Positions 57,215 through 61,874 of a stretch of 64,000 nt of DNA are shown one piece after another. The stretch's first letter is position 1, and every line of letters starts with the position of its first letter. The notes below the pieces were generated by a model that ran no database searches, had not been told where the DNA came from, and saw only the letters and a list, made by a program, of their open reading frames with translations. This stretch comes from Bacteroidales bacterium (GTDB lineage: Bacteria > Bacteroidota > Bacteroidia > Bacteroidales > UBA932), in the NCBI GenBank assembly GCA_017626355.1, contig JAGAIY010000012.1, positions 1,876-65,875 on the forward strand, read 5' to 3'. The translations under genes and the position numbers were made by a program.

Positions 57215-58225
57215 ATGACAGAAGATACTTTTTCTACCCTCGGAAGGGTGGAGGCAATCGCAAGACTCTACGAAGGAACCCCTTACAAACCGTTTCAGAG
57301 CAGCTGGTTCGAGACATCGGGCAAAAGCTGCATAAGTTCACATTCACGCACTTTCATCGAGGGAATGGATTTCGATCTCGTGTACTTCCCCCTCAAGCAT
57401 CTCGGCTATAAATGCGTTACAGCAGTAACAGGAGAACTCTATGCAGAGATGTCTCACCCCCGCACCCTTGACCTCCGTCTCGGAATCTCCTCAAAGCTGG
57501 ATTTCAAACAGATAAAGGAAGTATGGGAAGGAGCGACGGCAGCAGCACGTGAACATGGGTACCATCAGGTCGGACTCGACCTCATCCCTTCGCCTAACGG
57601 TTTGACAATCAGCGTATCAGCCGTAGGAGAAACTTCTCTTCTGATGTGCAGACGCCGACCTGAGGCAAAGAGCATGGACCTTATATGCGTGTCCGACAAT
57701 CTCGGTGCCGCTTATATGGGATTCCAGGTGCTGGAAAGGGAGAAGAAAGCCTTCATGCAGAGCGGCGATGCCAAGGCCCAGCCTAAGCTGGAAGACTACA
57801 AGCACCTTGTGGGAGCATATCTGAAGCCTCAGATAAACCCTCAGACCGTCAAGCAGCTGGAGGATTCCGAAATAATGCCTTCATACGGCTATCTCGTGAC
57901 CCGAGGTCTCGCAGATGCAGTAAGACGTCTTGTGCGCGACAGCGGCCTCGGCGCAAAGATCTATGTCGACAAGATCCCTTTTGCAGGAAAGACCTTCGAT
58001 CTCGGAAAGGAAATGAATATTGACCCGATGTCCGCCGCACTCAACGGAGGCGAGGACTACAGGCTTCTCTTCACGATTCCAATAGGCAGACATGACAAGT
58101 TCCGTCACGATTTCCAGACATTCGACATCATCGGACATCTGGCCAAGCCTGAGGTAGGAGCGGTAGTGGTGACACCAGACGGAGTGGAACTCCCTATGAA
58201 GGCCCAGGGCTGGAACAACGAATAA
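57215..58225 (+). CDS. thiL: Thiamine-monophosphate kinase ThiL homologue with a degenerate active site
   Basis: FDLVYFPLKHLGYK, DLICVS, LGAAYMG, LEREK, NGGEDY and AQGW match Bacteroidales ThiL; Asp motifs are missing. Confidence 0.7.
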   Translation: MTEDTFSTLGRVEAIARLYEGTPYKPFQSSWFETSGKSCISSHSRTFIEGMDFDLVYFPLKHLGYKCVTAVTGELYAEMSHPRTLDLRLGISSKLDFKQIKEVWEGATAAAREHGYHQVGLDLIPSPNGLTISVSAVGETSLLMCRRRPEAKSMDLICVSDNLGAAYMGFQVLEREKKAFMQSGDAKAQPKLEDYKHLVGAYLKPQINPQTVKQLEDSEIMPSYGYLVTRGLADAVRRLVRDSGLGAKIYVDKIPFAGKTFDLGKEMNIDPMSAALNGGEDYRLLFTIPIGRHDKFRHDFQTFDIIGHLAKPEVGAVVVTPDGVELPMKAQGWNNE

Positions 58226-58306
58226 AACTTAAACCGCATTTATATGAAAGTGATATTCAAGATAGACACCATTAAAATCGGTCTGGAGATGCAGAAATAA
58301 AATTTG

Positions 58307-58337
58307 TTTGCTGAACAGCTGAAAATATCTATCTTTG
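58307..58337 (+). promoter_or_regulatory. Promoter of the ORF6N array
   Basis: TTTG (58307-58310), 19 bp spacer, TATCTTTG (58330-58337). Confidence 0.7.
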
Positions 58338-58376
58338 CTTACAAGTCTGAACACCGTGGTTCGGTTAGAGTTCCAC

Positions 58377-58420
58377 AACGCGATATGGGTATAGTCGTAT
58401 AAGCCCGTATTGCGTTTTTT
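58377..58420 (+). terminator. Terminator-like hairpin in the 5' leader of the ORF6N array
   Basis: AACGCGATATGGG / CCCGTATTGCGTT 13-bp stem (2 G-U pairs) running into a T tract. Confidence 0.6.
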
Positions 58421-58450
58421 TGTTTTTATACGGCACTGAAACATTGAATT

Positions 58451-59044
58451 ATGGAAAATGAAAGAGCATTGAATCCGACGGCAATCGAGTCGTTGATTTA
58501 TGAGATCAGAGGGCAGAAGGTGATGCTGGACAGGGATCTGGCAAAGATGTATGGGGTTGAAACGAAGGTTCTGAATCAGGCTGTCAAAAGAAACATGAAG
58601 AGATTCCCGGAGGATTTCATGTTTCAATTGACTCCGGAGGAATACGATATCTTGAAGTCACAATTTGTGACATCAAGTTGGGGTGGAACCAGAAAACTGC
58701 CATATGTATTCACAGAACAAGGACTGGCAATGTTGTCCGGTCTATTGAATAGTGATGTAGCTATAAAAGTGAATATTGCCATAATGCGGACATTTGTAAC
58801 CATCCGCAATCATCTTTACACTACCCAAAGATTCACAGCAGAGCTGGAAGCGATAAAGGCGAAGCTGGAGCTGCTGGAGAGGAATGACGAGGACAATCTT
58901 GAGGCTATAAATGACCTTTCGGAAGACATGAGACACGAAATTGACACTATCTATCAGGCGATTGCAGCATTGTCGGTCAAAGAATCTCCGCAAAAGGAAC
59001 CGCAGAGGCAGAAAATTGGATTCAAGACACAAAACAGCAAGTAA
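58451..59044 (+). CDS. ORF6N (KilA-N-like) DNA-binding protein, copy 1
   Basis: IYEIRGQKVMLDRDLA, AVKRN..RFP.DFMFQL, PYVFTEQG.AMLS; coiled-coil C-terminus. Confidence 0.9.
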   Translation: MENERALNPTAIESLIYEIRGQKVMLDRDLAKMYGVETKVLNQAVKRNMKRFPEDFMFQLTPEEYDILKSQFVTSSWGGTRKLPYVFTEQGLAMLSGLLNSDVAIKVNIAIMRTFVTIRNHLYTTQRFTAELEAIKAKLELLERNDEDNLEAINDLSEDMRHEIDTIYQAIAALSVKESPQKEPQRQKIGFKTQNSK

Positions 59045-59048
59045 CATT

Positions 59049-59633
59049 ATGGAAAACAGCACATTAAAACAGACGACAATCGAGTCGTTGATCTATGAGA
59101 TCAGAGGGCAGAAGATTATGTTGGACAGAGATCTGGCAAGTCTTTATGGGGTAAGCACTGGTAATCTGAACAAGGCAGTAAAAAGAAATATTGAGAGGTT
59201 TCCTGAAAGGTATATGTTTCAATTGACTTCAGATGAAAACTTGAAATTCCAAAATGGAATATCAAGTTGGGGTGGATCCCGTTCCTTGCCATATGCTTTT
59301 ACAGAGCAAGGTGTTGCCATGCTTTCTTCTGTATTGCATAGCCCGGCTGCCATTCAGATAAGTATCAGAATTATAGATGCTTTCGTGGCAATGAGAAACT
59401 ACATAATGTCAACGAAGACGATATCCGATGAACTGGAAGCGATAAAGGCAAAGCTGGAGCTACTGGAGAGGAATGACGAGGACAATCTTGAGGCTATAAA
59501 TGACCTTTCGGAAGATATGAGACGCGAAATTGATACCATCTATCAGGCGATTGCAGCATTGTCGGTCAAGGAACCGATGCAGAAGGAACCGCAGAGACAG
59601 AAGATCGGATTCAAGACACAAAACAGCAAGTAA
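59049..59633 (+). CDS. ORF6N DNA-binding protein, copy 2
   Basis: Same motifs; ATG 59049 is 4 nt after the copy 1 stop. Confidence 0.9.
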   Translation: MENSTLKQTTIESLIYEIRGQKIMLDRDLASLYGVSTGNLNKAVKRNIERFPERYMFQLTSDENLKFQNGISSWGGSRSLPYAFTEQGVAMLSSVLHSPAAIQISIRIIDAFVAMRNYIMSTKTISDELEAIKAKLELLERNDEDNLEAINDLSEDMRREIDTIYQAIAALSVKEPMQKEPQRQKIGFKTQNSK

Positions 59634-59637
59634 CATT

Positions 59638-60246
59638 ATGGAAAACAGCATATTAAAACAGACGACAATCGAGTCATTGATCTATGAGGTTAGAGGGCAG
59701 AAGGTGATGCTGGATTTTGATCTGGCTGAATTGTATCAGGTAGAAACGAAGAGACTGAAAGAATCTGTCCGAAGAAATATCGAGCGTTTTGAAGGGGATG
59801 ATTTCATGTTTGAATTGACTTCTAAAGAGTATAACTCTTTGATAATCAGTTTGAGGTCGCAAATTGCGACCTCAAACGAGAGAGGTGGACGCAGACATAT
59901 GCCCTTCGCTTTTACAGAGCAGGGAGTAGCCATGTTATCCAGTGTCCTTAAAAGCGAAAGAGCAATTCAAGTCAACAGATCTATTATCAGAGCTTTCGTG
60001 GCAATGAGAAATTACATAATGTCAACAAAGACGATATCCGCTGAGCTGGAAGCGATAAAGGCAAAGCTGGAGCTTCTGGAGAGGAACGATGAGGACAATC
60101 TCGAGGCAATAAATGATCTGTCAGAGGATATGAGACGCGAGATAGACACAATATATCAGGCGATTGCGGCATTGTCCGTCAAAGAACCGACGCAGAATGA
60201 GCCACAGAGGCAGAAGATAGGGTTCAAGACGAATAATAGCAAATAA
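59638..60246 (+). CDS. ORF6N DNA-binding protein, copy 3
   Basis: Same motifs; ATG 59638 is 4 nt after the copy 2 stop. Confidence 0.9.
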   Translation: MENSILKQTTIESLIYEVRGQKVMLDFDLAELYQVETKRLKESVRRNIERFEGDDFMFELTSKEYNSLIISLRSQIATSNERGGRRHMPFAFTEQGVAMLSSVLKSERAIQVNRSIIRAFVAMRNYIMSTKTISAELEAIKAKLELLERNDEDNLEAINDLSEDMRREIDTIYQAIAALSVKEPTQNEPQRQKIGFKTNNSK

Positions 60247-60320
60247 AAACACCGCTGCCACGACTCGAGAAGCAGAAAAAAAGAAAAATGCTTCTCTCGT
60301 CCGTGGCAACGGTGTTTTTA
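60244..60320. terminator. Long imperfect inverted repeat between convergent ORF6N-3 and glyS (bidirectional terminator)
   Basis: TAAAAACACCG.TGCCACG..GAGAAGCA / TGCTTCTC..CGTGGCA.CGGTGTTTTTA. Confidence 0.7.
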
Positions 60321-60332
60321 TATAGAAAGCTC

Positions 60333-61874
60333 TTACTTCAGTTTCTTGAGAATGTTGCTGAGGTTCACCTCCTTGGCGATGATGCCGTGGAGATCCTCGA
60401 TCTTCACACGCTCCTGCTGCATAGAGTCGCGGTGACGGATGGTCACGCAACGGTCGTTAAGTGAGTCGTGGTCGATTGTGACGCAGAACGGTGTTCCGAT
60501 CGCATCCTGACGGCGGTATCTCTTACCGATTGAATCCTTCTCGTCGTACTGGCAGTTAAAGTCGTACTGGAGATCGTTCATGATCTCTCTTGCGAGCTCA
60601 GGAAGGCCGTCCTTCTTCACGAGCGGAAGCACTGCAACCTTGACAGGGGCGAGCGGTGCAGGAATGCTGAGGACAACGCGGCTTTCACCGTTCTCGAGCT
60701 GCTCCTCCTTGTATGCGTTCGAAAGAACGGCAAGGAACATACGGTCAACACCGATCGATGTCTCCACTACATAAGGAACATAGTTCTCGCCTGCCTCAGG
60801 ATCGAAGTACTGGATCTTCTTTCCTGAGAACTTCTGATGGTTTCCAAGGTCGAAATCCGTACGTGAGTGGATTCCCTCAAGCTCCTTGAAGCCGAACGGG
60901 AAGCGGAACTCGATGTCTGTAGCTGCATTTGCATAGTGAGCAAGCTTGTCATGGTCATGGAAACGATAGTTCTCGTCACCCATTCCGAGGGCCTTGTGCC
61001 ATGCCATACGGTTCTCCTTCCACTTTGCGAACCAGTCGAGCTCAGTTCCAGGCTTGATGAAGAACTGCATCTCCATCTGCTCGAACTCCCTCATACGGAA
61101 GATGAACTGACGTGCCACGATCTCGTTTCTGAAGGCCTTTCCGATCTGTGCGATACCGAAAGGAAGCTTCATGCGGCCTGTCTTCTGCACATTGAGATAG
61201 TTCACGAAAATACCCTGAGCGGTCTCAGGACGGAGATAGATGATGTTCGACTCGCCGGAAACGCTTCCGAGCTGGGTAGAGAACATGAGGTTGAACTGAC
61301 GTACATCAGTCCAGTTCTTTGTACCAGAAATCGGACATGCTATCTCGCAGTCAACGATGATCTGACGGAGTTCGGCAAGGTCATTTGCATTGAGTGCATC
61401 TGCCATTCTCTTGCGTACTGCATCGATCTTAGTCTGGTTTCTGAGGACATTCGGATTTGTAGCCCTGAACTGCTCCTCGTCGAAAGCATCAGCAAACTTC
61501 TTCCTGCCCTTCTCCACATCCTTCTCGATCTTTTCCTCGAGCTTGCCGATATAGTCCTCGATAAGCACATCGGCACGATATCTCTTCTTTGAATCCTTAT
61601 TGTCGATAAGCGGGTCGTTGAAGGCACCTACATGACCTGATGCCTCCCAGATTCTCGGATGCATGAAGATAGCCGAATCGATACCTACGATGTTCTCGTT
61701 GAGCCTTGTCATGGCCTCCCACCAGTATCTCTTGATATTGTTCTTAAGTTCGACTCCCATCTGTCCATAGTCGTAGACTGCGCCGAGACCGTCGTAGATC
61801 TCGCTTGAAGGGAAAATGAATCCGTACTCCTTGCAGTGAGCAACCAGAATCTTGAAAAGTTCTTCTTGTGTCAT
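60333..61874 (-). CDS. glyS: Glycine--tRNA ligase (alpha2 type)
   Basis: SEIYDG, YLRPETAQGIF, FRNEI, REFEQME, SIGKRYRRQD. Confidence 0.96.
   Translation of the reverse strand: MTQEELFKILVAHCKEYGFIFPSSEIYDGLGAVYDYGQMGVELKNNIKRYWWEAMTRLNENIVGIDSAIFMHPRIWEASGHVGAFNDPLIDNKDSKKRYRADVLIEDYIGKLEEKIEKDVEKGRKKFADAFDEEQFRATNPNVLRNQTKIDAVRKRMADALNANDLAELRQIIVDCEIACPISGTKNWTDVRQFNLMFSTQLGSVSGESNIIYLRPETAQGIFVNYLNVQKTGRMKLPFGIAQIGKAFRNEIVARQFIFRMREFEQMEMQFFIKPGTELDWFAKWKENRMAWHKALGMGDENYRFHDHDKLAHYANAATDIEFRFPFGFKELEGIHSRTDFDLGNHQKFSGKKIQYFDPEAGENYVPYVVETSIGVDRMFLAVLSNAYKEEQLENGESRVVLSIPAPLAPVKVAVLPLVKKDGLPELAREIMNDLQYDFNCQYDEKDSIGKRYRRQDAIGTPFCVTIDHDSLNDRCVTIRHRDSMQQERVKIEDLHGIIAKEVNLSNILKKLK

Follow-up and report, generated by a model that had tools for sequence, protein, structure and literature searches.

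Each of three tandem ORF6N genes in the stretch of Bacteroidales DNA analysed here (64,000 nucleotides, hereafter the window) carries a palindrome inside its coding sequence, and across the ORF6N family single bases of this palindrome change together with single residues of the encoded protein. The element lies at a fixed place in the gene, is symmetric, is present throughout the family in two reading frames and follows residue-base rules. This combination very probably reflects sequence-specific binding of double-stranded DNA, in which the helix would contact positions 3-7 and the wing positions 8-12 of each half-site. We lean, with slightly better than even confidence, towards an explanation in which the ORF6N protein would bind the palindrome of its own gene as a dimer and use it for self-restraint.

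The ORF6N array and its palindromes

All three proteins of the array belong to ORF6N (PF10543), with 130.5, 115.3 and 119.5 bits at a curated cut-off of 27.8. They are also matched by the PDC-S05 profiles of PADLOC (E 8.8e-60 to 1e-33) and are, by profile score, members of the PHROGs labelled phage 'anti-repressor'. The array lies between what we take to be an AIRS-domain gene on one side and a convergent glycine-tRNA ligase-like gene on the other. In the following list and throughout the text, residues are numbered as in gene 1 and bases are counted from the centre of the site.

58307..58337, plus strand: promoter-like motif of the Bacteroidetes type (TTTG, 19 nt, TATCTTTG), from the sequence
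58345..58455, plus strand: conserved structured leader with a terminator-like hairpin (58377-58416) and a T-tract; fold z=-3.5
58451..59044, plus strand: ORF6N gene 1, 197 aa; K39 V40 Q43 R47, wing R81 K82; Pfam PF10543 E=2.8e-38
58562..58591, plus strand: codons of the predicted recognition helix of gene 1, residues 38-47, from the AlphaFold2 helix 38-47 and covariation
58651..58677, no strand: site 1, A class, half-site GTCAC, A·A mismatch at ±8; fits Q43-A, K39-G, R47-C and R81-G
59049..59633, plus strand: ORF6N gene 2, 194 aa; G N K R at 39/40/43/47, wing R S; Pfam E=1.6e-33
59157..59186, plus strand: codons of the predicted recognition helix of gene 2, TGNLNKAVKR, by homology to gene 1
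59238..59268, no strand: site 2, C class, half-site ATTCC; fits K/R43-C and non-K39-A
59638..60246, plus strand: ORF6N gene 3, 202 aa; K R E R at 39/40/43/47, wing R H; Pfam E=7.9e-35
59746..59775, plus strand: codons of the predicted recognition helix of gene 3, TKRLKESVRR, by homology to gene 1
59849..59877, no strand: site 3, G class, half-site GTCGC, perfect 14-bp arms; fits E43/R40-G and K39-G
60243..60321, no strand: long hairpin between the array and the convergent glycine-tRNA ligase-like gene; inverted repeat, 20-nt arms, 95% complementary

The palindromes are inverted repeats located 204-225 nt into their genes, and each is the best of its own gene. Their centres (58664, 59253 and 59863) all coincide with the first base of a codon, and 12 of 13 base pairs are formed in copies 1 and 2 and 13 of 13 in copy 3. 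A sequence-only reading of the window had given the letters of the three copies, their positions, the common TTGA-N7-3 nt-N7-TCAA geometry and the encoded linker peptides just as we find them. Its proposal that the dyad symmetry is selected agrees with the comparison to synonymous shuffles, which the symmetry exceeds in all three copies (P at most 7.6e-4 each). Three codon-usage models were used with 200,000 shuffles apiece; copy 1 gave P values of 1.5e-5 to 1.3e-4, copy 2 values of 2.5e-5 to 7.6e-4, and for copy 3 the count was 0/200,000. The centre was picked from the data in this test, which the family test described below corrects by taking the best site anywhere in the linker.

The other two ORF6N genes of the source genome (C14 and C24) also bear the palindrome. 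The five ORF6N palindromes are among 51 of equal strength in 1.70 Mb. Matches to the core pattern numbered 7 against 6.2 expected, and only five of them have the outer arms, all in ORF6N genes. The whole-genome search revealed no full site outside the five ORF6N genes, and no regulon of ORF6N sites was found in this genome. Another, different long palindrome with a 3-nt centre occurs three times in the same genome (C2:52730, C11:30162 and C26:83965).

The promoter-like motif upstream of gene 1 was assigned by what we take to be the Bacteroidetes consensus, and a motif resembling it also heads the leader alignment. In its predicted fold the leader holds the start codon within the outer stem. 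BLAST matches to the leader lie upstream of other ORF6N genes and of one RhuM-like gene, and an alignment of 10 sequences showed two-sided change in 4 of 23 pairs; relatives of the leader are found at loci L635, L651, L431, L650, L636, L426, L432 and L573. A Rfam scan of 58150-60400, leader included, gave no convincing family. The leader is a possible attenuator, and the inverted repeat at the other end of the array is likely to be a bidirectional terminator. The slot of the array is variable in relatives, where it mostly holds other genes, but one ORF6N gene in G124 and three, reordered, in G177.

Occurrence of the palindrome in the ORF6N family

Loci for the family analysis were gathered by protein motif or profile, never by palindrome. 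The homologue search returned at least 8,000 candidates, and the named genomes that contain the family represent 23 bacterial phyla and two archaeal groups; the sample analysed is skewed to the FPxDFMFQL subfamily. A site with at least 8 of 10 pairs was found in the same linker in 278 of 285 distinct ORF6N genes, as compared to 8.3% of shuffles and 12 of 264 downstream control stretches. Even for a distant ORF6N protein of a Fusobacterium phage (25% identity), the codons of this loop contain a 10/10 palindrome. Removal of the 14 of 285 genes with no or several sites, followed by dereplication, left 237 genes, in 18 of which the palindrome is read in another frame and the same DNA encodes another peptide. 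Since the element is kept in two reading frames, it is selected as DNA and not as peptide, as the sequence-only reading had supposed.

Across the phyla, ORF6N genes lie mostly among housekeeping genes and their sites are mostly single. Some are co-oriented inside operons, such as nuoF-ORF6N-nuoG (L237), a gene between nuo genes (L232) and a gene between two halves of metH (L191); no mobility gene adjoins these three insertions. A 4.1-kb plasmid of Segatella copri (L719) contains only Rep and an ORF6N gene (674-1291), whose site fits the code described below. In Parabacteroides distasonis, a three-gene ORF6N array adjoins leuS.

Of 228 genes, 29 also have the 27-bp element a short distance upstream (30 sites in 59 kb versus 6 in 111 kb farther out, a density about nine times higher). 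The upstream sites are cognate in 20 of these 29 genes and the other 9 have only non-cognate ones; paralogue remnants and N-terminal codons account for some of the upstream sites. Two sites of different classes are present within one linker at L017, L271, L308, L318, L394 and L412; the last site, beside the wing, is the cognate one in five of these six.

Correlation between bases of the site and residues of the protein

Mutual information between site and protein peaks at residues 43 and 40 with position -4 and at residue 39 with position -7. The rules were counted in a larger collection of 348 genes, of which 319 have one site, 19 several and 10 none; dereplication left 279. R47 goes with C(-3) in both arms in 259 of 261 genes, and non-R47 with A(-3) of the left arm in 18 of 18. 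At position -4, Q43 goes with A (142/143), E43 with G (80/84) and K or R43 with C (46/49). G(-7) is present with K39 in 127 of 131 genes versus 13 of 148 with non-K39. For the wing, R81 goes with G(-10) in 151 of the 155 genes listed and K81 with A in 37 of the 38 listed, although linkage could contribute there, the wing being encoded within 30 nt of the site. Arginine and lysine commonly prefer G, glutamine and asparagine A, and glutamate C, and the observed pairings agree with these preferences.

The rules were stable over 18 frame-by-residue combinations, and we regard this stability across frames and residues as the strongest argument for the code. Sixty loci were fetched after the rule had been set; 43 genes could be parsed, of which 39 fit, 2 misfit and 2 had no site (39/41 fitting), and most of the unparsed genes lack R47 and were the source of the -3 rule (24 of 24). 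All three genes of the window obey the rules, and together they span the three main classes at position -4. The helix strings quoted in the sequence-only reading are present as written and fall on the predicted helix 38-47. Its notion of a unit of reader plus target had implied that site bases covary with helix residues, and the mutual information, the hold-out loci and the 18 combinations bear this out.

On a tree of 224 genes, 60 base changes, 60 residue changes and 60 changes of the two taken jointly were counted. With the trait columns masked, independent pairs agreed in about 10 of 11 (p=0.002), 7 of 7 (p=0.016) and about 9 of 9 cases (p=0.004); no independent pair among those tests ran in the opposite direction. 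The analysis with about 10 of 11 also gave about 6/6 pairs and, for A/G versus Q/E alone, 4 of 4 (p=0.125), and position -8 versus residue 82 was not significant on the tree (p=0.06). The trees were built by FastTree from about 113 columns and offer few independent pairs. Since single bases in both arms pair with single residues 30 codons away, the covariation is not due to inheritance of linked blocks. Packing of the site-coded peptide against the helix within one protein was considered as another cause and rejected, as the rules hold in the second frame with its other peptide.

The compensatory changes between copies, which had been taken as a sign of selection on symmetry, thus reflect two half-sites that follow one and the same protein. 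Selection acts on the DNA as had been claimed, but not on symmetry as such. Asymmetry is seen where the residue is tolerant, namely A·A at ±8 with K82, which accepts A or T in either arm, and A·C at ±7 with non-K39. The A·A mismatch of copy 1 is accounted for by its tolerant K82; copy 2 has S82, with which A·A is rarer.

A hairpin would be the other obvious use of such symmetry, be it an mRNA stem, a cruciform or a recombination site, or else the symmetry could result from template switching and the covariation from linkage. The stems are indeed stable (-11 to -21 kcal/mol), tandem linker sites and 5' fragments ending just past the site occur, and many gene-free copies are at terminator-like places. 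However, the 188 mismatches comprise only 34 G·T, with 52 A·C, 41 A·A and the rest other, and they gather with tolerant residues. Being mostly non-wobble and at such residues, they indicate a double-stranded protein site rather than a hairpin, and the RNA stem suggested as an alternative in the sequence-only reading finds no support. At the centre, 233 of 237 genes have A or T. Positions -3, -4 and -7 change independently of one another, each following a different residue 30 codons away in both frames, a pattern that neither linkage nor pairing can produce. Nor is recombination supported, as the contigs of four runs contain no site-to-site joint, albeit contigs drop rare variants; the joints that were seen had short sides at 88% likeness, probably from other organisms. 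In comparison to integron attC, the sites lie in mid-gene, and a single integron integrase was found among 110 flanking ORFs. We therefore give a hairpin function very little credence.

Predicted structure of the protein

AlphaFold2 places residues 39, 40, 43 and 47 on the second helix of a helix-turn-helix (block pLDDT 94-96) and the site-coded peptide in a low-confidence loop after it. The model consists of a small DNA-binding head, a long helix and a tail. Fold matches to DNA-binding domains were weak (Z 4.7-5.5), as was the alignment with Mbp1, of KilA-N-like fold (Z 4.7, rmsd 3.5, 83 residues). No solved homologue was found by sequence and Foldseek gave no match at E<=0.001, while a profile comparison with one Bacteroidales KilA-N protein returned a probability of 0.1%. 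The homodimer prediction scored 0.20 (mark 0.42).

The head-helix-tail architecture resembles that of pSK1 Par and RacA, which combine a MerR-like head with a coiled coil. The model aligns with pSK1 Par on centromere DNA at Z 4.9 (rmsd 2.2, 53 residues) and with RacA at Z 3.9. The site might on these grounds be a centromere-like loading or tethering point that lets the protein anchor or stabilise its carrier DNA. The plasmid with Rep and ORF6N would suit such a role, and parS inside spo0J is a precedent for a tethering site within a gene. However, Z 4.9 and 3.9 are at background level for the search used, the sites are mostly single, most of the genes are on chromosomes among housekeeping genes, and the many specificity classes would be left unexplained. 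Tethering as the main function thus appears highly improbable.

Sites without an ORF6N gene

Two site patterns detected 67 sites in viral contigs, 28 of them inside ORF6N genes, 4 upstream and 2 nearby. The remaining 33 of the 67 have no ORF6N gene within 1 kb; of these, 27 fall between genes and 6 within ORFs for a helicase or cytidyltransferase, in 25 distinct contexts altogether. Two scrambled palindromes, which match the A/G-class pattern only, gave 0 and 0 hits in the viral contigs. When 20 orphan-site viral records were searched whole, 9 of them at least 90% complete, none encoded ORF6N (0/20), with 4/4 in the positive control. In one record, sites of the C, G and A classes, the same three as in the window, are clustered within 135 bp, and two others hold two classes. 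In host genomes, 55 matches were found in 39 of 201; among 15 loci inspected, 4 were ORF6N remnants and 11 were gene-free, the latter with 14 sites, 8 of them with the strict core. The idea that orphan sites are confined to phages was rejected, because host chromosomes have them too. The near-perfect sites kept by phages without the gene suggest a benefit to the phage.

Self-restraint by itself leaves the gene-free sites unexplained. The phage copies would be better accounted for if the site served chiefly as an antidote or self-marker at the DNA level, in the manner of aba and BstA: the protein, an anti-phage or addiction effector, would be switched off when bound, DNA with the site would be spared, and phages would have copied the site to neutralise the protein. 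BstA has a KilA-N-like domain, and its cognate element overlaps the gene and acts in cis and, at high copy, in trans (PMC8585504). Besides the match of all three window proteins to the PADLOC candidate PDC-S05, a RhuM-domain member of PDC-S05 cut plating of T7 and T5 about 1,000-fold (10.1101/2024.09.26.614923). The gene-free viral sites with their empty scrambled controls, the orphan-site records that encode no ORF6N, the cluster of three classes and the small Rep-plus-ORF6N plasmid also speak for an antidote. However, the PDC-S05 member tested is RhuM and not ORF6N, and no effector domain is recognised in the short ORF6N form, as in the window. The evidence for a defence-island context is weak, with other defence candidates making up just 4 of 110 flanking ORFs (3 ORF6N pieces and 1 RecQ having been dropped). 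Moreover, the host chromosomes contain gene-free sites as well, the viral collection as a whole yielded just 2 close pairs of different classes, and 13 of the 25 phage orphan sites lie within 60 nt of a stop, 9 with a T-run, so that many may be terminators. We judge an aba-like antidote to be rather unlikely as the main role of the site, though compatible with self-restraint.

The sequence-only reading had proposed that the array is a library of orthogonal specificities, possibly used against mobile elements with matching sites. The proteins might then silence the ORF6N genes or other genes of such elements by roadblock. The coverage of the three main -4 classes by the three genes agrees with this, incoming targets exist, as the 28 viral sites within ORF6N genes illustrate, and no two sites were identical among 58 within-genome pairs. 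However, over-dispersion was not significant: same-class pairs numbered 20 of 58 versus 25.8 by shuffle (P=0.08) and identical sites 0 versus 2.75 (P=0.052), and the other two P values were 0.22 and 0.82. A Parabacteroides array contains two genes with the same helix, and in the source genome full sites are confined to the five genes. It is also doubtful that the proteins act against elements with matching sites, because near-perfect sites persist in phages that lack the gene, whereas a target would be expected to lose them. Selection for an orthogonal library is thus not supported by the counts, and we consider the array improbable as a weapon of this kind.

Some gene-free sites are located beside toxin-antitoxin-like pairs or before a DNA-methylase operon (L736:7856-7992 in G237, L738:5776-5840 in G239, L753:1501-1523 and L776:1479-1501). 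Hybrid sites with an A-class left half and a G-class right half are present in phages L678, L683 and L693, two of them just before rIIB-like genes. A different, AT-rich palindrome with the half-site TTACA lies upstream of RelE/HTH-like pairs at L743, L765 and L777 and is probably their own operator.

Proposed self-binding and self-restraint

On balance, self-limitation would be the purpose of the site. As a dyad site that lies inside the gene and covaries with the predicted DNA-reading residues, it follows the pattern of an intragenic operator. Bound protein would impose a leaky, partial block on transcription of its own gene, and the site may also act as a tether that holds the few protein molecules made. 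A lone, horizontally moving and possibly harmful gene would in this manner carry its own control inseparably, and sister genes with other sites would be controlled separately. The gene-free copies in phages would be putative decoys or borrowed operators. Because a tight roadblock would be polar on the housekeeping operons that contain co-oriented ORF6N genes, any block must be leaky. The 9 of 29 genes with only non-cognate upstream sites and the coexistence of two classes in six linkers are points against self-restraint. The CasPRs, which act by roadblock at sites in the coding sequences of cas genes, provide a precedent (10.64898/2026.02.23.707548).

Several operators and other protein sites lie within coding sequences, for example lacO2 in lacZ, galOI, parS in spo0J and the lambda ori iterons in gene O. 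Like the ORF6N palindrome, these are overlaid on codons, and binding within a gene can block RNA polymerase; those of spo0J and lambda O are, in addition, bound by the product of the host gene, as would be the case for ORF6N. The known intragenic sites are either single and fixed or act on other genes, whereas the ORF6N site is written into the codons of the DNA-binding domain, has diverged along with the protein into many classes, is read in two frames and has counterparts in four other families. REP/BIME and the Rickettsia palindromic elements are also short palindromes, but dispersed, the Rickettsia ones being tolerated in coding sequence; the ORF6N site differs from them in being found once per ORF6N gene at the homologous position, with five full sites in the source genome, and in following the residues of the protein.

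The closest precedent is BstA/aba (PMC8585504), where a small DNA element in the locus of a KilA-N-like-domain protein likewise overlaps the coding sequence and forms cognate pairs, the ORF6N pairing being deduced from covariation. The anatomy of aba is different: it has 63 bp with terminal direct repeats and lies over the gene start (PMC8585504), whereas the palindrome of ORF6N measures 27 bp, is found some 70 codons downstream of the start and follows a residue-base code. An anti-phage activity or immunity function of ORF6N would be putative. In the literature covered, which takes in few subscription journals and not the original definition of the domain, no description of an ORF6N DNA target or of an intragenic palindrome or code was found, and the accessible part of PMC5944126 has nothing on ORF6N targets.

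Palindromes in related families

Palindromes with at least 9 of 10 pairs at a fixed codon were also found in four related families, in 21 of 28 RhuM genes (shuffles 25/224), 20 of 28 DUF1016_N genes (11/224), 18 of 21 KilA-N genes (10/168) and 16 of 25 Bro-N genes (8/200). The loci used were 28 of 30, 28 of 30, 21 of 26 and 25 of 30, respectively. The geometry of the site differs from family to family, and residue-base covariation in the four, judged by eye, is suggestive. ORF6N, RhuM, DUF1016, Bro-N and KilA-N could, on a fairly speculative view, all be one-gene modules with a DNA-site antidote in the gene; the protein would be harmless while the gene is intact and unleashed when the gene is lost or outnumbered, the residue-base code would allow diversification, and phages would carry decoys, sometimes of each class.

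Through the palindrome, a DNA target can be predicted for the members of a very large family, and the prediction extends to four related families that have long gone under the labels 'anti-repressor' or 'virulence'. Each gene would be a matched protein-site pair, and the family thus a natural recognition-code dataset with at least four separable rules and a potential source of orthogonal regulators. How the DNA element switches off the protein, an open question for BstA/aba, becomes testable with a predictable code. The gene-free phage copies, if decoys, would represent non-coding counter-defence.

C-terminal forms of ORF6N proteins

ORF6N forms of about 300 aa (L007, L010, L049, L235 and others) have an extra C-terminal domain with an HDRF motif; the domain has no Pfam match and is presumably PLD-nuclease-like. 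The short forms are closed by a conserved IGF motif, encoded at 59017-59025, 59606-59614 and 60219-60227 in the window and present in 94 of 145 complete tails, which to us is reminiscent of the ClpX loop that docks on ClpP.
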